64,000 nt of DNA from a virus (taxonomy: Duplodnaviria; Caudoviricetes). The stretch spans positions 1 to 64,000 of the IMG/VR virus record IMGVR_UViG_3300028048_000086; one strand, written 5' to 3'. Positions 39,319 through 64,000 of the stretch are shown piece by piece (position 1 is the first letter of the stretch; every line of letters begins with the position of its first letter). The position numbers and the translations under genes were made by a program. The notes under the pieces were generated by a model. The model made no database searches. It saw only the letters and a list, made by a program, of their open reading frames with translations, and was not told the origin of the DNA.

Positions 39319-42300
39319 TCAGCTCGACATCCCGATGGCATTCGACACCATACGATTAATATGATATTGGCTGGCAGTAGATCCAATCGTACTGCTCATC
39401 GTGATATTTACTGATCCATTCTGCGGCGTCATTCCGGAAGCGGCATTCTGAATAGCTTCTACGGCTTTTTGCTGTCCCTGCGGAGAAGTAGCGTTGACAT
39501 TGATGACGTAACCACTATTCGGGCCTCCACGCATGACATTCAAGTTCGCATCAGAGAGCGATGGAGCCTGCTGCATCTGTGCTACTTGGCTTTCATCAGA
39601 CTGACCACTTTGAGCTTGATCTGCCGGGCCATGATCCGATGTAGAATTCATCGGACCAGAAACATATCCGGAAGTAAGCAATCCGCCGGCGATGCCGATT
39701 GCTCCGGCGAGAATCGGATTTCCGACATGTTCTGTCATTCCGGCAATGCCTTTGATAGCCTTCGCCACTCTATGAGTAGAAGCTCTAACGGCAGCTTCTT
39801 CGATTTCTTCTCTGCGTTTTAAAGCATTGTCTGAATTCTGACGAATGACATCGGCAGCTTCTCTTGCTTTTTCTGTACGAATATCGGCGGCGCTACTACG
39901 ATTTTGAGGAGCTAGTGCATCTTCGTAGATTTTAGAATCAACCCCCATGCTTTTCGCTTGTTGATTGACCATTTCTTCTGTGCTCGTTATGAGCGATTCA
40001 GAAGATCCGCCTTCAATTTTGTACTGGTCATAATCTGGGTTGAGACCATTCTTGGAGATACCGACACGCATTGCCGCACGGAAATTAGCGCTGTTCGGAG
40101 AAGTCATTGTCTCTACAGCGTCATGAACGAGCTGGGCGCCCATCGCGGCTTTCATGCCATTCGTAATTTCTCCACGATTAACGGAAGCAATTTCTTCGGC
40201 GTTCGCGGCGGCATCCTGTCCAAGTTTCCAGAGATAGAAGTCTTTTGCTTTCTCATATATCGGCGTATCCTTATCGAGAACGTTGGACGGTAAACGAGCA
40301 AGTTCTTTTCCGGTACGAGTACTTAAGAGATTATAGTACATCTCGCGAGCTTCATTCGCGACATCACTGACTTCTTCGCCTCTACCGCGTCTATTCATAA
40401 CACCGTAGATACGGCTATTCAATTTCGACAGCTCTTCACTTCGAGTCAAATCACCATGTTTCTCACTCTTACCCGTTAAGGTAGCTTCCTGAATCGCGGC
40501 TACAGTTGTCGTCGCGAGATTTAAGTAACCATGCGTATCTCGATTGCCTTCGAGATTTGCCATGGTGCGCATCCATTCAAAGATCGAAGTATTCAAGCTG
40601 CCAGCTGCTAGTTTCGAAGCATCTGCCTCGATCTTCTGATTAATCAGAGCAGAAGTCTTCGCATAATGCATGGACTCCAGCAAATCTTTCTGCGTGTCTT
40701 CCGTATACTTTCCGCTCGTCCGTACATAGTCGCTCATCGCTCTTAAGTAATCTGTGGATCCTTTTTCAAGACCTTTTTCTTCGGCGATAGGCGCGAAAGC
40801 TTCATTTAGTTTTTCATTTAACTTGGAATATTTCTTTTCTTCTTCAGGAGTGTAGACTCTGTCGAAATCAACGGAATGGCGACCATCATACGTGGCATCC
40901 CGAACAGAGTGCGTATCAAGATCATCCATACGAGGAGAAGCATCGCGGCGATCATCAAACTGGTTGAACGTAGCTGCTGTATGGATCGTAGAACCGATGG
41001 CGTCGCGGAAAGCCTTTCCTCCGTCATCGAGCTCGACAGATACGCCTTCCATTTTCTTGAGAGCTTTGTATCCGGCATAGTCAAGAGAATCCGTGTGGAT
41101 TTTCTTTTCTCCGATATTAATCGTAGCTCCGGAACGAACGACGAGAGCGTCGCCTTTATCGGAGTCAAAGTCACCTTTCTTTTGCATCCAGCCCCTGACA
41201 CCGACAAGAAGCTCATCATCTCCGACTGTATCATTGACGTATAAAGCACTCGCGGCGATAGAAGTATTCTGCTGAGCTGGTTGACGAAGAATATCGGAAA
41301 GAGTACCCGTCGTTTTAACTTCTTCCAGCGTAGCCTTCTTCAACTTCGTAGCCAAATCGGCATTGCCGCCGGTCAGTTCCATGAAGTAGTCGTCGTTGTA
41401 AATAGCCTTCGCAGCATTGTTACCAACGACAGCGTAAGAAAAGTTTAAAGCCTTAGAAGCATCTTTTCTTCCAACATCTGCCATTTTCGACAGGTTGACA
41501 CCTTGCCATTCCAGCTGCGAGAAGTTGCCATCCAGAGAACGCCATTCTCCATTTTCGGTAACGCCGCCAGCGAAATCATGTCCCTGAGCAGTCGCACGAA
41601 TAACGCCATCTTGGAAGTAAGCATTCGACGCTTTCTTGACAACGCCATCTTTGCCTGTCGTCAGCTGCGAGACATGTCCGACAAACTGGTCAATACTTTC
41701 CTGAATTTTTCCGAGAGCTTTTTCACGAGCGCCTTTGACGTCAGCATTTTGCTCGTAGTTATCACTATAATCACGATATTGACGCAAGAGACTAGCAATG
41801 TCACCTGTAAGAATGCCAGGACTCAGTGTGCCATCTTCTCTTTCGAAGATATCTTTCGTAAACGGAAGAGCTAAGTAGCGATTGCTTCTCTTGCCGTAGA
41901 TCTGAGCCTCTTCAGGAAGTTTGTCATCATGAAGATCGATCAGAAGAGGTCTGCCATAGAGCTGATTCGTAAACTCTTCCATACCAGAAGCTCTTGCCTG
42001 AGTATTCAAGTCTTTCAATGAAACGACATTGAATCCGAACTTCTGCATGTCATCGACGGTCAGAGTATTCTTTTTCTGATTAAACTTGCGAGCGACGGAG
42101 AAAGAAAACGCCATATTTTGCGCCAAGACTTTATCAGCCGTGATCTTTGTTGCGCCGGCTTTTTTCATGGTGCCAATGACAGAATCAATCTGTTCTCCTG
42201 TCATGCCTTCGTCAACTAACCTTTGGCGAGCTTTCTGAGACTCTTCTGTCAGCTGTTTATACTGAGGAGCAAATTCTTCTTTGCGTTCTTCCAGCGTCTT

Positions 42301-56966: not shown

Positions 56967-58719
56967 CGTAGATGTTCACCTCCATATCCAGCTGGTCGCG
57001 ATAGCACGATGCATCGCCAATATTATTGAATGCCGCGAAACCTGAACGATGATAGTCATTCAAGCTAATCGCTAGAACAACGCAAAGGGCATCTTGTGCT
57101 ACATTTACCGTTACGGCATGTCTGTAATCATCAGAGCGATAGAATCTCTTCGTCACCGTTCTCGATGATGTGTCGTACTTAATAGCGCATATCTCGTATG
57201 GAACGTCTTGGTCGTAGAACGCGACTTCGCCCTCGGAGTATTTTAGTATCGGCATTTTGTCGAAGAACTGACGAGTATAATTGAACTGTTTCATCCACTG
57301 ATCGTGAATAAAGAAGATTGTGTTGTCGATGTCATTCGACAGTTCTTGGTGCTGAAGAATCTCGAAAATGGCCTTGTCTCGAATATCTTGCATCGTAAGA
57401 TCATAGTCATGAGACAAGTTGGTGATGATATCTGAAACGGTATTGTATAGATTTCCCGCGCCGAATACCCGCTGGAAGCTCTGAAGAAAGCTCTTTGCGT
57501 AAGATAGATTCTCTACCAATTGGCGCTTCTTTCGATAATCGTCGATATCTCCCCGGATATCGAAACGAGCAAATTTCGATATAATCTTGCCATCAGCATC
57601 TTTGATATATAACAAGATTTCGTCATCGATAAAGTCTGAACGAGTATCGATCGTCATAACTCTCTTGTTGATCTTATAGCGGCAATCGTACGTAACGTTC
57701 TCGAAGAGATCTGTCTCGCAAAGCGCCAGATAAAAGTCTTTTCTCGAACTAGCGAAGAAATCATAATCTGGAATCGTAACATGAATCACGCGGTCGTCCA
57801 GATTGTCTCTCTTCACCGTGACACGATCTATGATATAATCTACCGGCTCTTTCTGTGTTTCAATGACGATGCGGGACTTGTCATCCTGTGTCAATTCAAT
57901 ATCCAAGTACGATAGCTCCGTATCATCGATAGAGTTTTCAATTTCAATATCGCGAGAAAGCCCTGAATAGGATTCCCATAGGAATTTGGATCCTTCCTCA
58001 TCCATTTGATAATGGATAAGTTCGAGAGCCATTTCCCCCTGAATGTAGAAATCCAGCAGATAGTATGTGTCTGGCGTCAAGCTCGGATAGAAGTCTTCAT
58101 CAATTCCTCTCGTAGTTACATATACTTTTTCTCCGTCTTCGATTTTGAAGACATTTACGCTCGTAAAACCGGAAAACGGAGTTATGCTGAAACGTGCCGC
58201 ATAATGAATAGAAACATCCGGGCAGTTTCTTTTATTGCATGACATCGATACAATATTTTCGTACTGCTCCGATGCTAGAATCAGTTGATAGAAGCTTTTT
58301 CTTTCGAACTCCTGAATATTTTTCACTTCATGAAAAGCTTTTACCAGTGAGTAAGTATATCCATCATTCGCATCTCGAATTTCGGCGATTACTTTCTTCA
58401 TGTAATCTTCGTCGATAGGGGAGACGATGCGAGAATATATTTTCTCGTAAGTTTCGCTGTCTTTCTCAAGAGAAACATATGCTTCAATTTTTGCGGAACT
58501 GCCTTCTCCTGATGTCATCCAGAAAGAATAGAATCCTGCTCCTTCTGGAAAGCTTCTTATAATTGTTCGGTTCGACGCTACAGCAGCGGCATGAATCTCG
58601 TCATTGCCATTCTTCTGATACATAACAGAATTATATCCGACGTCCCATCCGTCTGTCCGGAAGCATAAGCCTCTTTCTCTCTGCCATAAAAGCGCTAGCG
58701 GCGCGTAAGATCTTCTCAT
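56959..58719 (-). CDS. Hypothetical virion-region protein
   Basis: 586 aa, acidic, overlaps both neighbours; no motif recognised. Confidence 0.55.
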   Translation of the reverse strand: MRRSYAPLALLWQRERGLCFRTDGWDVGYNSVMYQKNGNDEIHAAAVASNRTIIRSFPEGAGFYSFWMTSGEGSSAKIEAYVSLEKDSETYEKIYSRIVSPIDEDYMKKVIAEIRDANDGYTYSLVKAFHEVKNIQEFERKSFYQLILASEQYENIVSMSCNKRNCPDVSIHYAARFSITPFSGFTSVNVFKIEDGEKVYVTTRGIDEDFYPSLTPDTYYLLDFYIQGEMALELIHYQMDEEGSKFLWESYSGLSRDIEIENSIDDTELSYLDIELTQDDKSRIVIETQKEPVDYIIDRVTVKRDNLDDRVIHVTIPDYDFFASSRKDFYLALCETDLFENVTYDCRYKINKRVMTIDTRSDFIDDEILLYIKDADGKIISKFARFDIRGDIDDYRKKRQLVENLSYAKSFLQSFQRVFGAGNLYNTVSDIITNLSHDYDLTMQDIRDKAIFEILQHQELSNDIDNTIFFIHDQWMKQFNYTRQFFDKMPILKYSEGEVAFYDQDVPYEICAIKYDTSSRTVTKRFYRSDDYRHAVTVNVAQDALCVVLAISLNDYHRSGFAAFNNIGDASCYRDQLDMEVNIYDG

Positions 58720-59747
58720 TCTTTCTTTTCACGCTCTCTTTCATCATAGTATTCTCGAGTCTTTGAGAAAGCGTAGTTGTAAGCTGCTCTGATCTTTTCT
58801 TTTCTATGCTCGTATCTATCTTTCTGTATCAGGCCGCTCTTATAATCTTTTTCGTTCTCATTGTCAAACCAAGCTTTTTTATCGCTGAGCTTTTTATTGA
58901 AATCTTCCCGAGTCGAATCCTGTAGTTCTCTTACGTCTAACGGAAAATCGGAAACGTATGGATTCGAGCTATCATACTCTTTAGAAATTCCCGTGATAGA
59001 TAAGTTGTAGTCATCATCGCTTGATTTTACCTCACCACTATCTTTTTTTACTGGGTTATCAATGGGAGTATTATCGTTAACGTTATTGTTTACAGGGATA
59101 TCGTTTATGGATAGCGGGCGATTGACACCAGCGCGATTTCCGTCCGTGACATTCGACAAATAATCTACATCCTTCGCGAAGAACTCAAACGTATTTTCAG
59201 TGTACATGTCCTGCACACTCATAACCTGTCCTTCTGATACAAAAGAAACACCGTAGATTGCCAAGCGAGAGCTACTGCCGTATTCGTTGCTCATTGAAAT
59301 CGTAACATTAATCGGCGGAATCTCGTCTATCAAAACATGAGATTTATTGCTAACAGCATTCAGGTATTCGTCCATCATAGACTGAGCCCAGTGACGATCG
59401 AATACCGTAAAAATCATTTTACCGGCAACCATGCGATTGCTGAAGACATAACTCTTGTAATTCATGTCTCCGAGAACGCGAACTGGCATTTTCTGGTTAT
59501 ACAAGGAATATGATATCGTCTGCATCTCTCCGACGACCTTCGTAATGCTCTTTCCGCTCACCAACGGAAGTTCGAAGATGCAGATCATATCGTTGCCAGA
59601 GTAGCTCGTATAAGTACGAGTATACGCAGAAGCTACTGTTCCACCATATCCTTGAGATTTTGCCGATACTCCGCTCGTGTATGCTTTTTTATTTTCTTGA
59701 GCCGTATAAGCAGGAGAATCCACTTTCGGCTTGTCTACTATATTCAA
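58716..59747 (-). CDS. Tail tube-fold paralogue with charged C-terminal extension
   Basis: YTRTYTSYSGND...VGEMQTISYS...FTVFDR...DEIPPINVTISMSNEYG closely matches the spliced tube protein. Likely TTG start at 59747 after GGAGG (track start 59774). Confidence 0.7.
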   Translation of the reverse strand: MNIVDKPKVDSPAYTAQENKKAYTSGVSAKSQGYGGTVASAYTRTYTSYSGNDMICIFELPLVSGKSITKVVGEMQTISYSLYNQKMPVRVLGDMNYKSYVFSNRMVAGKMIFTVFDRHWAQSMMDEYLNAVSNKSHVLIDEIPPINVTISMSNEYGSSSRLAIYGVSFVSEGQVMSVQDMYTENTFEFFAKDVDYLSNVTDGNRAGVNRPLSINDIPVNNNVNDNTPIDNPVKKDSGEVKSSDDDYNLSITGISKEYDSSNPYVSDFPLDVRELQDSTREDFNKKLSDKKAWFDNENEKDYKSGLIQKDRYEHRKEKIRAAYNYAFSKTREYYDEREREKKE

Positions 59748-59774
59748 TGGAGAATCCCTCCGTTTTATACGCAC

Positions 59775-59814
59775 GAAAAAAGAGAGTGAGTTAATTTTTT
59801 AATTCACTCTCTTT
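59775..59814 (-). terminator. Terminator after the tail tube gene
   Basis: Stem AAAGAGAGTGA(A)TTAA/TTAA(C)TCACTCTCTTT followed by a T-run on the minus strand. Confidence 0.65.
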
Positions 59815-59841
59815 ATTACCGATTGTAGATATAAATATATC

Positions 59842-61936
59842 TTACTGGACGGCGCTCTCGCGCTCGATCGGCTTCATGTACTCGACGCGACGAGCAACGA
59901 ACGTGCAGGCTTTCTCCGAGATGACATTGTCGATAGAAAAACCGCTCTGCTCGTTCAGGATTTCAACAGCGTAAAGAACGATTGAAGCCTTCTGGCCATA
60001 TTCATTCGCGAACGAGATCGTGATATCGAACGGCGGAATTTCATCGGCGTACTTCGGCATAGCGACACTCGAGATATTTTTCGCACGCGTCTCGGCTGCC
60101 TTCTGCATACCAGCATCCGTATTCGTATCGTTAGAACCGACGCCATTATTCGCGATACTCGTCATGTTCTTATCCCATTCATCGATGGAGAGACGAGCAT
60201 ACTCGTTAGCATTTTCGTTATCTCCGCCGATACGATGGAACGACTTTTCTTTTCTGACGTGATCAGCTAGACCAGCGACAAGAGCATCACGGTCGAAAAT
60301 TGTGAACACAAGAGAGCCCGCGACGCCACGTTTGCCACGAGAGAACGAACGAGGCTCTGCACTACCCATAGTATAGCATTTATTGGACTATGCCTTTGGC
60401 AGCTCAAAGAGCTGCGTGTCTCGCATATTAGCAATAAAATCAGAATCTTTTATATGCAGTCGATAATACTTATGTGTTCCTTTATTGTGAAAAACAGGTG
60501 TCGAATTAACATCAAGAAGATGCTGAATTCGTTTACACCACGCAAGTGTTCGATTGCTATCAGCTATTGGCATGATTTCATTTCTTTCATCGAGAACGGT
60601 ATGCGAAACATATAGAAGTTCTTGATCTTGATTGTCAAATGTGTTATTATCGAGAACATATTTTTTATATAGCTCATGCTTTCTGGATAAGCAACAGTCG
60701 TCTATGTCTCCATGATATAGCCACCAAATAATCAATCTTGCGAGATTTCCTTCCCACAGAATTTCCCAGACATTATTTTGTGGTACCCATCTTGGCGCTT
60801 TTGGAGGAAGCATAAGAGTGTCAACAAGCGTATCACATACCCAATCAGTGATCTCTTTCTTCTCGTCTATAAAACCAAATCTTACCGCGTTTCTTGAAGC
60901 ACGATATGAAATGGTGCCATCGCCATCGACACATCCACGAATAAAATCTCGTTCATAGCCTTTTATCGCTTCTACAGGAACTCTTTCTTTGATATCTGAA
61001 AATTCATCGATAATGTCCCTGCGATCGTAAACACGAATTTTGGGTTGTGGAGATTTATACTCGGAATAATCATGAACAACGGCTTTAATTCCGAGAATTG
61101 CTTTTACCTTATGCATCAATTCCCTGTCAGCGTATTTACAGATAAACTGCATATGCGTTTCATCACCTTTTCCTCGATATGAAGGATGTGTAATGGCGCC
61201 ATCTGACAGAAGATAACCTAAAAACCATGCCATTTTGCTATTCAATTTTGATTTCTCCTTTATATCCACCTATAGGGGATTGGAATATTGCTAGGACCTC
61301 TTCAGGTCGAGTCTCTACGGGCTTTGATACTTTATGTATCTTACCCTCGGCGTTGGGTGCTAACCGTTCACCGATTTGAGCGAGATTTTATGCCAGCCTA
61401 CACTTATTAGGCAACCGGCGCTTTTTCCTTTTCTTTTAGATAGTTCGTTAAGCTATCTACTGCATCATATGCAGCTCGAGATTTCAATCTCGATGAGGAG
61501 ACTATTTCTTCACCATGCCGCTTACGCGGTTTAGGGCGACCCATTTCGAAAGCACTTGCTTTCTATGGCTATTTCAAGCCTTAGTCGTTTGACCTTCCTG
61601 TTTCCAGGCTTGGCGACCAAACATCCCTTGTTAGCAGCTTTTAGACTTGCGTCATGAGCTATCTTCATCGTTGTTTCTGGATTTCTCCACCATCAACAAG
61701 GTTTCTATCTATCCTTGTTTGTGGTGATGAAGCTCTTAAGGAGTTACTGGTTTTAAGGTCGTGTCCCTGCACGGTTTCCCGTACAGCGGAGAATAAAATG
61801 CTTTTTATAGCGTTTCTCTTTGAACGTGATAGGTAATAGCTTGCAGCTCTCCGATGACGGTATCACCGAAAGTAGCTACGATGTCGCATCCTGAAAACGA
61901 CGTATAAGTACGCGTGTAGCTAGAAGATATTGACAT
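59842..61936 (-). CDS. Major tail tube protein, split in 3 exons (61936-61817, 61427-61414, 60376-59842; 222 aa spliced)
   Basis: AAGGAGG RBS and ATG at 61936 right after the sheath gene. Joining the exons gives MSISSSYTRTYTSFSGCDIVATFGDTVIGELQAITYHVQR|EKAPV|YTMGSAEPRSFSRGKRG..., 669 nt in frame, with the same register as the paralogue at 58716 across both junctions. Confidence 0.85.
60377..61413 (-). mobile_element. Group I intron 2 (carries homing endonuclease)
   Basis: The 5' exon ends in U and the intron ends in G. IGS GUGUAG-GCUGGC (61403-61392) pairs with exon 2 GCCGGU (U.G at the splice site) and with exon 3 CUAUAC (P10). P3 UCUCGC/GCGAGA, P4 UCGGUG/CGCCGA, P7 GACU/AGUC, P8 GCAGCUC/GAGCUGC. 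Confidence 0.9.
60388..61269 (-). CDS. Intron-encoded double-motif LAGLIDADG homing endonuclease
   Basis: Motifs AWFLGYLLSDG and DFIRGCVDGDG; lies inside intron 2 and looks more AT-rich than the flanks. Alternative TTG start at 61245 after AAGGAG. Confidence 0.85.
   Translation of the reverse strand: MDIKEKSKLNSKMAWFLGYLLSDGAITHPSYRGKGDETHMQFICKYADRELMHKVKAILGIKAVVHDYSEYKSPQPKIRVYDRRDIIDEFSDIKERVPVEAIKGYERDFIRGCVDGDGTISYRASRNAVRFGFIDEKKEITDWVCDTLVDTLMLPPKAPRWVPQNNVWEILWEGNLARLIIWWLYHGDIDDCCLSRKHELYKKYVLDNNTFDNQDQELLYVSHTVLDERNEIMPIADSNRTLAWCKRIQHLLDVNSTPVFHNKGTHKYYRLHIKDSDFIANMRDTQLFELPKA
61428..61816 (-). ncRNA. Group I intron 1 (ORF-less, ~389 nt)
   Basis: P2 CUGUACGG-GAAA-CCGUGCAG; P3 CGACC/GGUCG; R element GGUCAAACGACUA (P7 at 61586-61582); S element AAGAAAUAGUC (to 61500); P7.1, P7.2, P9, P9.1 and P9.2 hairpins; terminal G. 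Boundaries are uncertain by a few nt. Confidence 0.8.
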
Positions 61937-62017
61937 GTTTTCCTCCTTGGTCTGATTATAAATTCAGGCGAGGGCGACGGCCCCCGCCCAAATATACTTT
62001 TCTTATATTTTCTCGAA

Positions 62018-64000
62018 TCAGCTATTCGTCGTAATGGTGTCAACCATCTTGATCGAGTTGCTGACCTCGCGAATTTCATAGATCGGGATGATCTGATAGT
62101 CGATCTCGATACGGTTGAACTTCATGAGGCTCGGATCCGTATTCATCGTGAAGTCGTACTTCTCGATGAGCTTGTTGACGATCTTATCAAGTTCGGACTT
62201 GATCGCCGTATTAAGAGCATTACGGTTCGCCTGATGATTTTCCTTACCGATGAACGGCTCAGCAGCAGCACGAATGAGCTCTTCAACTGCACCGACGATA
62301 CGGCTCGTGGAAAGGCGACGGTAAATCGACTCTGCCGGAGCCATCGTGATACCATCCGTAACGACGATACCCTTCGTGAACGAGTTCTTGAAGGTGACTG
62401 CACCGTAAGACGTGAGGCGACCAAGCTGAGTATTCGTCAGCGTGTAGCTCGGCGTCGGAATAGAAATCGTCTGGCCCGTGGAGCTCTGATCAAGCGGAAG
62501 CGTTGAAACCATCGCGGCATAACCAGCGGCACCGTTGGAGATGTACTGATAGTTCGTGCTGCCAACCGTGATCGGATACTGACCGAAGACAAGAGAAACG
62601 TTCTTGCCAATCGGATACGGCATCGAGTTTGAATCCAGCATGTTGTGGCCGACGCTCGTCTTCGCGTAGAGATCAAAATCACGATCAACGATCGAAGAAA
62701 CCTTCTTCGCGACAGAAGCGAGGCCGAGATTCGAAAGCGTTTTAACACCGATCACACCATGCGTCGGAGCCGTTTTGATTTCCGTATACGTGCAGTGCTG
62801 TGCAAGCTGACGAACAAAGTTGTCGCTCGTACGATACGGAATATAACGAGAGTAATCATACGTGAGCTGACGATCTTCGAGAGAAACAACCTCTGCCGGA
62901 GTTCCCGGGGTCGTCGTGCTCGGACCGCCACCGACACCCGGAACCGTCGTGCCCGGAGTAGCGAATGCCTTCTTCGCGTTCTCAGCTTCCTCGACAAAAT
63001 CATCTTTTTCGAGAGAGCCGTCATCCGTAAGAGACGTGATGAACAGGCGGCTGAAAACTGTATCCGCATTAAGATCTTCTGCGATTTCATCAACCGTAGA
63101 CGTGTCAAAGATGTTCGAACGAACGATGACATGATTGAGAACTCCGCCGAGGTTCGTAGCTGCGACTGTAAGAATATCAGAAGTATCCGTAGCAGACAGC
63201 TTCGAGAACTCGCCCTGCGGAACCATCGAACCGCTTTCTTCTTTATATACGAAAACCATGCTCATGTCATCACCAAGAGCGTACTCCTTGCCAGCAGAAA
63301 GCGTATCGGCAATAAGAGCACCCGTTGCGTCAGCTTTCATGAGCTTAGCATCGCCTGTCGCGTCGATGACGATATATTTCGTTCCATCAGCAACCGTGCC
63401 GGAAACATCATCAATCGACTTATCGCCAACGCGCTTCAGCTTTCCGCCGACACTGATAAGCGTACCGTTATCGTAATCATCGACTTCAGGATCTGACGGG
63501 AGTTCAGCGATGATCTTGCGGATATCATCCGTATCGACCTTATCCATCTTATCAGCGATGGAGTCTGCATCCGTGATCTTCTCGAACTTGATATCAAACT
63601 TGCGAGCAGCCTTCAGATCAGACTGAGCAACGTTTGCTTTGACGCGGATATCGCCGCCAAGGACGATTGCATCATTCGCGGCTGCAACGCGGAACGAATT
63701 TGCTCTCGGAAGTTTGCCGTTGATGCTTTCATCCGCACTAGCGCAGGTAAGAACGCGATACTTTGCATTCGAGTCCTGAATGACCGAATAAATGCCATCC
63801 GTGATAGCAACAACATGATTCGAATCATCAGCTTCAGATTCCTTGATGCGCGGACGGAGCTCTTTGCCTTCGCTATCAACACGGCGAATCGCATGAGCCG
63901 TAATAGCGTAGCCCATGCCGAGACGCTGGTAAATATCGAACGGCGTCATGCTCGTTTCCTCGTAGTCAATGTCGTCCTTCGTGAAGACACGATCCGTGAG
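62018..64000 (-). CDS. Tail sheath protein, partial (start beyond the right edge)
   Basis: C-terminal sheath signature DGITMA...YRRLSTSRIV...AAEPFIGKEN...IDYQIIPIYEIREV; directly upstream of the tube gene; the frame stays open to the window edge. Confidence 0.85.
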   Translation of the reverse strand, partial: LTDRVFTKDDIDYEETSMTPFDIYQRLGMGYAITAHAIRRVDSEGKELRPRIKESEADDSNHVVAITDGIYSVIQDSNAKYRVLTCASADESINGKLPRANSFRVAAANDAIVLGGDIRVKANVAQSDLKAARKFDIKFEKITDADSIADKMDKVDTDDIRKIIAELPSDPEVDDYDNGTLISVGGKLKRVGDKSIDDVSGTVADGTKYIVIDATGDAKLMKADATGALIADTLSAGKEYALGDDMSMVFVYKEESGSMVPQGEFSKLSATDTSDILTVAATNLGGVLNHVIVRSNIFDTSTVDEIAEDLNADTVFSRLFITSLTDDGSLEKDDFVEEAENAKKAFATPGTTVPGVGGGPSTTTPGTPAEVVSLEDRQLTYDYSRYIPYRTSDNFVRQLAQHCTYTEIKTAPTHGVIGVKTLSNLGLASVAKKVSSIVDRDFDLYAKTSVGHNMLDSNSMPYPIGKNVSLVFGQYPITVGSTNYQYISNGAAGYAAMVSTLPLDQSSTGQTISIPTPSYTLTNTQLGRLTSYGAVTFKNSFTKGIVVTDGITMAPAESIYRRLSTSRIVGAVEELIRAAAEPFIGKENHQANRNALNTAIKSELDKIVNKLIEKYDFTMNTDPSLMKFNRIEIDYQIIPIYEIREVSNSIKMVDTITTNS

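Follow-up and report, generated by a model that had tools for sequence, protein, structure and literature searches.

Two described systems come closest to the locus considered here. According to two published accounts (PMC11878797; PMC10136302), the orf142 gene of phage Twort contains three self-splicing group I introns and was later recognised as the tail-tube gene; its introns 2 and 3, both of the IA2 type and very much alike, are separated by an exon of only 23 nucleotides (nt), and exon skipping is described. One of these accounts (PMC10136302) also describes a 34-nt exon lying between two group I introns in the 23S ribosomal RNA (rRNA) gene of Coxiella burnetii. The guide pairings P1 and P10, as well as the terminal-G rule, are reviewed elsewhere (PMC3984707). 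Here, we analyse a comparable arrangement in the window, i.e. the whole 64,000-nt stretch of DNA under study, which corresponds to positions 1 to 64,000 of the IMG/VR virus record IMGVR_UViG_3300028048_000086. On its minus strand, a tail tube gene (59842-61936) is interrupted by two tandem introns, intron 1 and intron 2, placed on either side of a 14-nt micro-exon.

The likeness to Twort orf142 is close, as in both cases a myovirus tail-tube gene contains closely packed group I introns and a very short internal exon, with possible exon skipping. An earlier reading of the window, made from the sequence alone (the sequence-only reading), had put orf142 forward as a precedent for several introns in one late gene. 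This comparison stands, but orf142 is a closer precedent than was claimed, being itself, according to the accounts cited above, a tail-tube gene with a 23-nt exon and exon skipping, and the novelty of the window locus is therefore lower. The two loci nevertheless differ in several ways. The window belongs to a lineage of jumbo phages resembling phage 0305phi8-36, whose tube family is unrelated to that of Twort at the sequence level; its micro-exon is shorter (14 versus 23 nt); its introns come from unrelated families; one of them carries a putative LAGLIDADG gene, and intron 1 is without a U at its 5' splice site. The Coxiella arrangement is similar in that two group I introns of different subgroups surround a very short exon, but it concerns a bacterial rRNA gene and a longer exon. 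The layout is already of a known kind; the phage lineage is new and the micro-exon is very short, and the rule by which the family of intron 1 marks its 5' splice site may be the part that is new.

Our results make it highly probable that two mobile group I introns, unrelated to each other, invaded the tube gene at homing sites separated by 14 nt, and that the spliced mRNA gives a tube protein of 222 amino acids (aa). Intron 2, of the Azoarcus/IC3-like type, would carry a LAGLIDADG homing endonuclease, and its guide would pair, in P1, with the final 6 nt of the micro-exon (a U.G pair included) and, in P10, with the initial 6 nt of exon 3, and so align them. Intron 1 would be a derivative, devoid of any open reading frame (ORF), of an IA-like family whose other members have a LAGLIDADG ORF in the P1 loop, and its guide would pair with the last two exon bases and with the first three bases of the intron itself (both subgroup labels, IA-like and IC3-like, were assigned from the helices present and from consensus strings). 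After transcription, each ribozyme would fold separately and excise itself by two transesterifications initiated by guanosine triphosphate, and the product would be the mRNA for the 222-aa tube protein. We infer the actual self-splicing, its efficiency and its order from the features described below, whose coordinates are collected in Table 1.

Table 1. Coordinates of the split tube gene, of its two predicted introns and of the adjoining genes.
Feature	Position	Strand	Description
Intron 1	61428..61816	(-)	389 nt, no ORF; family A, predicted group I; P7.1/P7.2 IA-like; terminal G61428
Intron 1 catalytic core	61499..61588	(-)	P7 5' strand 61588-61582 ACGACUA; P7.1; P7.2; P3' 61542-61537; P8 61529-61518; P7 3' strand 61504-61499 UAGUCU
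Intron 1 guide	61789..61793	(-)	UUCUC; predicted to pair with exon GA (61818-61817) and intron GAA (61816-61814); abuts P2
Intron 2	60377..61413	(-)	1037 nt; family B, predicted group I; Azoarcus/IC3-like but without P2; terminal G60377
Intron 2 guide	61392..61403	(-)	GUGUAG (P10, 61403-61398, with exon 3 60376-60371), then GCUGGC (P1, with micro-exon 61419-61414)
Intron 2 3' core	60385..60424	(-)	P3' GCGAGA 60424-60419; P8 hairpin 60415-60399; J8/7 CAAAGGCAU; P7 3' strand AGUCC 60389-60385
Tube exon 1	61817..61936	(-)	40 codons from ATG 61936, MSISSSYTRTYTSFSG...ITYHVQR
Micro-exon	61414..61427	(-)	GAAAAAGCGCCGGU, 14 nt; E, K, A, P and the first two bases of V45
Tube exon 3	59842..60376	(-)	C of V45, then YTMGSAEPR... 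to the stop
Putative LAGLIDADG homing-endonuclease ORF	60388..61245	(-)	285 aa from TTG 61245, after an AAGGAG ribosome-binding site
Tail sheath gene	62018-63949		Upstream of the tube gene; PHROG 16991, E 6e-49
Tube paralogue	58716-59774		Adjoins the tube gene

The structure of the gene in exon 1, 14-nt micro-exon and exon 3 is real. Exon 1 is 70-82% identical to exon 1 of the relatives (23 sequences fetched from IMG/VR and 80 from metagenomes, designated below by L numbers; in the set behind the intron alignments, every sequence compared is a metagenomic assembly). After codon 40, its frame continues as GAA ACG CTA TAA and stops three codons further, and the ORF track gives for the tube gene a 175-aa ORF running from Met 60369 to 59842. 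The string GAAAAAGCGCCGGT is located at 61427-61414, within the 1440 nt between the two tube reading frames, and exon 3, which reads C-YTMGSAEPRSFSRGKRG, begins with C60376, after G60377. Once joined, the exons (120 + 14 + 535 nt) make up 223 codons including the stop, that is 222 aa. The N-terminal region of the predicted spliced protein contains ...YHVQREKAPVYTMGSAEPR..., and a peptide spanning the predicted splice junctions covers the stretch EKAPVYTMGSAEPR.

In the intron-less homologues of phages KLEB27-3, WH1, 0305phi8-36 and MTATph1, this stretch is uninterrupted (...GELQAITYSVTR-EKAPV-YTMGDPNPKSFSRGKRG...; ...ITYSVTR EKAPV YTMG...), and the junctions are defined because these homologues read through. 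Furthermore, R40-E41 is invariant in 59 of the 59 metagenomic alleles that are intron-less here, and K-(A/V)-P comes next in almost all of them. When exons 1 and 3 are aligned to the profile of PHROG 9206, they cover positions 14-52 and 59-168, respectively, the gap being the place of the micro-exon, and the identical 14-nt micro-exon is found in at least six other contigs. A five-residue, in-frame and splice-compatible match within about 1.4 kb of intervening sequence is not due to chance; a single large intron with an accidental EKAPV match was considered and rejected. On re-reading the sequence, all the coordinates of the sequence-only reading hold, as does its proposal that splicing restores a 222-aa protein, and the comparison with intron-less homologues that it had called for gives an R-E-K-(A/V)-P context supporting the EKAPV micro-exon.

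Intron 2 is a canonical group I intron and is predicted to self-splice. Its P1 (GCCGGU/GCUGGC) consists of 6 base pairs (bp) with a U61414.G61397 wobble at the junction, and its P10 (CUAUAC/GUGUAG), also of 6 bp, is contiguous with the P1 guide. Among the homologues of intron 2, which constitute family B, the junction pair is U.G in all nine, and three of the six P1 pairs are compensated. Changes in the guide track synonymous exon changes in L013, L043, L052, L060, L079 and L099, and P10 of L060 also shows a compensatory change (GUACAC/GUGUAU). In the core, P3, P4, P5, P6/6a, P7 (with a bulged A) and P8 are mapped. P7, G(A)GACU/AGUCC, has the G-C guanosine-binding pair, and little or no variation is seen in P4, P6 and P7. 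All nine members form P8 as a hairpin, each with a different sequence, and P3 covaries, reading UCUCGC/GCGAGA in the window, UCUUGC/GCAAGA in L013, UCCUGC/GCAGGA in L016 and CUCUGC/GCAGAG in L043; it is 100% paired across the family, with four pairs compensated. When the nine sequences are tested together for covariation, 96.5% of the cells are paired, versus 35-47% with the partners slid, and a compensatory change is present in 19 of the 44 pairs.

The last intron base is a G in eight of the nine family-B homologues, the exception being L016 (L016:2926-3995; IMGVR_UViG_3300028591_000168), an intron 2 homologue with an extra P9 hairpin, located in a tube gene with four introns. No G is available there as last base (...CUAAAA^AUAUACC, where ^ marks the splice junction), and for the frame to be preserved the last base must be A; this copy has either a defective 3' splice site or a non-G terminal base. 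A scan of viral contigs with the family-B core string AACGCCGNGGGTAAGATAC gave, besides the L016 contig, only chance matches in terminase coding sequence (L036-L039).

Several parts of the intron 2 core resemble what we take to be the corresponding parts of Azoarcus/IC3 introns. These are presumably the string GUAGAGACU (J6/7 and the 5' strand of P7), as well as (A/G)AAGGCAUAGUCC (J8/7 and the 3' strand of P7), which we assume to be like that of Azoarcus and of the IC3 introns in cyanobacterial transfer RNA (tRNA) genes. The string AAAGGCAUAGUCC is presumably also an Azoarcus/IC3 string, and the P3-J3/4-P4 segment (..CAAAUCGGUG..) and the small P4-P6 domain presumably resemble those of the Azoarcus and cyanobacterial tRNA IC3 introns. 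Unlike these introns, intron 2 is without P2 and, in the window copy, without P9; it contains an endonuclease ORF of ~860 nt and two hairpins between the 5' strand of its P7 and P3', and it is inserted in a protein-coding phage gene, not in a tRNA anticodon loop.

This ORF is 285-293 aa long, and TTG 61245 is its likely start codon. Two LAGLIDADG motifs, LGYLLSDG and FIRGCVDGDG, are visible in the protein, which matches PHROG 4645 'endonuclease' (E 7e-16). With Pfam LAGLIDADG_3, the window copy reaches 21.5 bits versus a cut-off of 22.5 bits, and five of the five aligned orthologues match, with a best E of 7e-8. A sequence-based comparison to solved structures, with the single sequence and with a profile, gave nothing significant. 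At its end, the ORF overlaps the ribozyme, as its last ~12 codons cover P3', P8 and J8/7 and its TAG stop extends over the first two bases of P7'. The L013 ORF runs through P7' in another frame (KGIVQ, then the stop).

Intron 1 is also a group I ribozyme, predicted to self-splice, and belongs to another family, family A. The alignment of this family has 15 members, 12 of which are at the same tube site, one at another tube site, one in a terminase gene and one in a tape-measure gene. RNAalifold alone mis-paired the 5' strand of P7, which is pseudoknotted with P3; this was corrected by hand, and the structure was likewise completed by hand (16 helices, with P2, P3, P4, P5 and its three-way extension, P6, P7, P7.1, P7.2, P9 and P9.2), P6, P8 and P9.1 being seen by eye and kept outside the pair count owing to alignment indels. 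The resulting topology is that of a group I intron, with a P3/P7 pseudoknot, P4-P6, P7.1/P7.2, P8 and P9-P9.2. In the window, P2 corresponds to 61789-61765. P3 (61761-61756 with 61542-61537) shows compensatory changes in five of its six pairs, and P7, A(C)GACUA/UAGUCU with a bulged C, is invariant in the 15 sequences, guanosine-binding pair included. Over the whole alignment, 92.7% of the cells are paired versus 30-40% in slid controls, 58 of the 77 pairs have a compensatory change, and the covariation score is 0.588 versus 0.07-0.12; none of the observed values was reached by any of 500 shuffles.

A segment of 33 nt (61614-61582), going from the end of P4 via P6 to the 5' strand of P7, is 94% identical to the introns found in the tape-measure genes of Lactococcus phage 38502 and Streptococcus phage Str-PAP-1. 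The latter introns, which score 25-35 bits with Rfam Intron_gpI, lie as intron 1 does in tail structural genes, but they carry HNH and not LAGLIDADG ORFs, and their peripheral helices are other than those of intron 1. Members of family A are also present, in other uncultured phages, in a terminase large-subunit gene (L031:8157-8511) and in a tape-measure gene (L034:13081-13455), and the family therefore moves between late genes. At the site of intron 1 (site 1), the introns of L010, L043, L045, L051, L057 and L061 have an ORF of 318-330 aa inside the P1 loop, and each of these ORFs runs into the guide sequence and P2. The ORF of L045, the only copy scanned, is a LAGLIDADG endonuclease (Pfam LAGLIDADG_1, E 6e-7) with an N-terminal helix-turn-helix-like region, and a promoter-like TTGACA-17-TATGAT lies ahead of it. 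Intron 1 of the window is the ORF-less form of the family.

The 5' splice site of intron 1 deserves a separate description. The 5' exon ends with A61817, which is paired with U61790, and in the relatives this pair is either A-U or G-C, the exon base never being U. In the window, a repeated GAAA leaves four bases of ambiguity at the junction. In L061 (CAGAGG^CAGACU...ACAAG^GAAAAGGC), no bases are common across the junction, which is fixed between codons 40 and 41 because of L061, L043, L045 and L057, together with the invariant E41. P1 reads GA^GAA with UUCUC in the window and six other alleles, GG^GU with GCCC in L045 and L057, GG^CAG with UUGCC in L061, and GA^GU with GCUC in L098: its positions -1 and +1 covary across alleles. 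In six alleles, the P1 strands are ~1 kb apart, with the P1-loop ORF between them. The same P1 geometry is found in the tape-measure intron of L034 (GA^GUA/GCUC), whose last base is G and whose junction AGKNR^NVFTSIM aligns gapless to YomI of SPbeta. P10 is limited to three pairs, and all 13 site-1 introns have the same 3' end, ..AAG^GAA. Among the other possibilities considered, junctions at AGAG^AAA or further 3' are excluded by L061, L043, L045 and L034, and P1 alternatives with GGAGAA 61691-61686 show no covariation; L031 was discarded as a check of the family-A junction rule, its 5' flank being the intron ORF and not the terL exon.

Group I ribozymes usually cleave at a U.G pair located four pairs above the base of P1. 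Several members of family A have a U.G pair precisely there, two positions inside the intron (L045, L057, L098, L033 and L034), and intron 1 might alternatively splice at +2, the 5' cleavage taking place after the fourth P1 pair (GAGA^A) and the 3' cleavage after ...AAGGA, with a terminal A. In the window, both models give an identical mRNA, GA being repeated at both junctions, and the family-B intron of L016 would likewise provide an example of an intron without a G as last base. However, with the shift residue 41 would become V or Q in L045, L057, L098 and L061, whereas it is E in all 59 intron-less alleles. All tube introns would moreover have to end in A, and the L034 intron in C; if the junction is left unshifted, every one of these introns ends in G, and L034 has its gapless match to YomI. 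On the strength of these allele comparisons, we prefer the unshifted junction and hold a shift to be very unlikely. With the unshifted junction, family A would mark its 5' site without a U.G pair, cleavage occurring after a Watson-Crick-paired purine two bp above the P1 base and the terminal G being kept, a rule to which we give about an even chance. Literature searches for natural group I introns without a U at the 5' splice site returned nothing usable.

As regards the micro-exon, P10 of intron 1 uses only its bases 1-3 (GAA, 61427-61425) and P1 of intron 2 its bases 9-14 (GCCGGU, 61419-61414), five bases remaining unpaired in between. The two guides use separate ends of the micro-exon and there is therefore no competition between them, nor any forced splicing order. 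The sequence-only reading had supposed that the two guide pairings share the same 14 nt and that this sharing may force an order; both suppositions have to be given up, as opposite ends are used and nothing in the sequence forces an order. It had rightly pointed out that exon skipping would shift the frame, the micro-exon being 14 nt long. Its central proposal, in which two tandem introns of group I type split a tail-tube gene on either side of a 14-nt micro-exon, is supported by the homologues and by covariation, and the tests on 15 and 9 sequences bear out its view that both ribozyme cores are complete. An exon much shorter than 14 nt could hardly accommodate both P10 of one intron and P1 of the next. 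As the two ribozymes are unrelated, less cross-talk and less exon skipping would be expected than for Twort introns 2 and 3.

Several points weigh against the arrangement proposed here. At the gathering threshold, Rfam gives no match in the whole window. A search with the group I model, as suggested by the earlier reading, stays under the gathering score for both introns of the window: with Intron_gpI (RF00028), intron 1 scores 14.4 bits (E 0.3-1.7), below the gathering score of 50 bits, with an alignment that extends over the full model length and begins exactly at 61816, and intron 2 of the window has no match at E up to 10, nor has the ORF-less relative in L046 at E up to 0.1. The intron 1 homologues of L019 and L033 score 37.2 and 38.7 bits (E ~1e-6), also under the 50-bit threshold. 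The Rfam miss of intron 2 probably reflects a limit of the model, its subtype being missed, and the window copy has in addition a core interrupted by the ORF. Secondly, as the endonuclease ORF extends through P3', P8 and P7', translation and ribozyme folding may compete. Thirdly, intron 1 has no U.G wobble at its 5' splice site and only two exon bp in P1, and its self-splicing could be weak or could need a protein cofactor. Finally, the phage is uncultured, and its contig is a metagenomic assembly.

The third of these points can be carried further, intron 1 being then a splicing-impaired or cofactor-dependent relic whose removal is inefficient, or needs a host or phage protein, and limits the supply of tube protein. 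Such a relic could account for the missing wobble, the two exon pairs in P1, the three pairs in P10 and the absence of an ORF from the window copy, and many group I introns do need maturases in vivo (PMC3984707). Nevertheless, the same type of junction is present in at least eight diverged lineages, with a covariation of P1 positions -1 and +1 that points to selection for pairing; the core is invariant, including the guanosine-binding pair of P7, and the tube is an essential and abundant virion protein. An impaired intron 1 appears unlikely to us.

The last point raises the question of whether the tube gene could be a decaying pseudogene of a defective phage, or an assembly artefact, the tube being supplied by the paralogue next door. 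The source record is indeed a metagenomic virus contig from IMG/VR; it is 117,973 nt long, with an estimated completeness of 46%, and the paralogue adjoins the tube gene. Yet nothing is broken in the exons, which are in frame and share 60-80% identity with those of orthologues, nor in the two ribozyme cores or the endonuclease ORF. The layout recurs in several independent assemblies, and 0305phi8-36 and its relatives retain both the tube gene and its paralogue. We regard a decayed or misassembled gene as extremely improbable.

Among the relatives, about 30 loci, some of them duplicates of one contig, have one to four intervening sequences in the first ~70 codons, and 59 loci have no insertion between codon 40 and Met48. 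All four states are found: neither intron, an intron at site 1 only (L010, L051, L057, L061 and L091), an intron at the site of intron 2 (site 2) only (L013, L052, L060, L079 and L099), and both introns with the same 14-nt micro-exon (the window, L019, L043, L044, L045, L046 and L098). L012 is an intron-less allele 98-99% identical to L010, which has the site-1 intron only. The presence or absence of each intron is independent across relatives. Other pairs of sites yield micro-exons too, of 23 nt in L016 and 21 nt in L050. Across the relatives, at least nine intron sites are counted between codons 18 and 69 (D18^I19, Q32/G33, H37^V38, V38 phase 2, R40^E41, V45 phase 2, G59^K60, G62^I63 and V68 phase 2; list drawn from L016, L018, L019, L023, L033, L050, L078 and others), a single tube allele having from zero to four introns. 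These sites fall in the most conserved part of the tube protein, as expected of homing-endonuclease targets. Several other introns in the tube gene of the relatives pass the Rfam gathering score, with 87, 59, 53.5 and 50 bits. The contigs of this clade come from rumen, gut and other metagenomes. A regular-expression scan of the whole 117,973-nt record with the core strings of both families revealed no further copy outside the tube gene; its extra matches were two chance occurrences of GGCATAGTC in coding sequence, at 41074 and 45532.

The window is part of the genome of a jumbo phage resembling 0305phi8-36. Among named phages, the tube protein has its nearest relatives in the Bacillus jumbo phages KLEB27-3, WH1, Edson and 0305phi8-36 and in the Moorella phage MTATph1, in whose records the tube gene comes after the sheath gene; it is annotated as tail tube in KLEB27-3 and 0305phi8-36. 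In tblastn, exon 3 matches the tube protein of KLEB27-3 (E 7e-35) and gp140 of 0305phi8-36 (E 3e-24), the GenBank record of which gives a virion protein found by mass spectrometry and marked as tail tube. The tube gene of the window both shows homology to gp140 and sits just downstream of the sheath gene. A megablast of the region against GenBank phages gave no match. PHROG 9206 and several GenBank records give the tube family the name 'major head protein', and in MTATph1 (L004:2851-3483) the coding sequence CDS0020 is annotated from Met48, the intact ORF beginning ~150 nt upstream at a GTG. Two hairpins flank the tube gene: a GC-rich one lies between the sheath and tube genes, at ~61965-61990, and a strong one, followed by a T run (59765-59835), comes directly after the tube stop and ahead of the paralogue; the latter is probably an intrinsic terminator or attenuator.

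Automatic annotation gives an essential virion gene as a 175-aa fragment, and it is the recognition of the introns that restores the 222-aa tube protein. At the level of the clade, closely spaced pairs of homing sites have given rise to micro-exons more than once (14, 21 and 23 nt), and these phages lend themselves to studies of how introns are gained and lost in nature and of how tightly two ribozymes can be packed. Finally, the apparent non-U 5' splice site of intron 1 is the most useful lead, as it bears on the choice of the reaction site by group I introns: if true, the rule followed by family A would differ from that inferred from Tetrahymena, Azoarcus and Twort.

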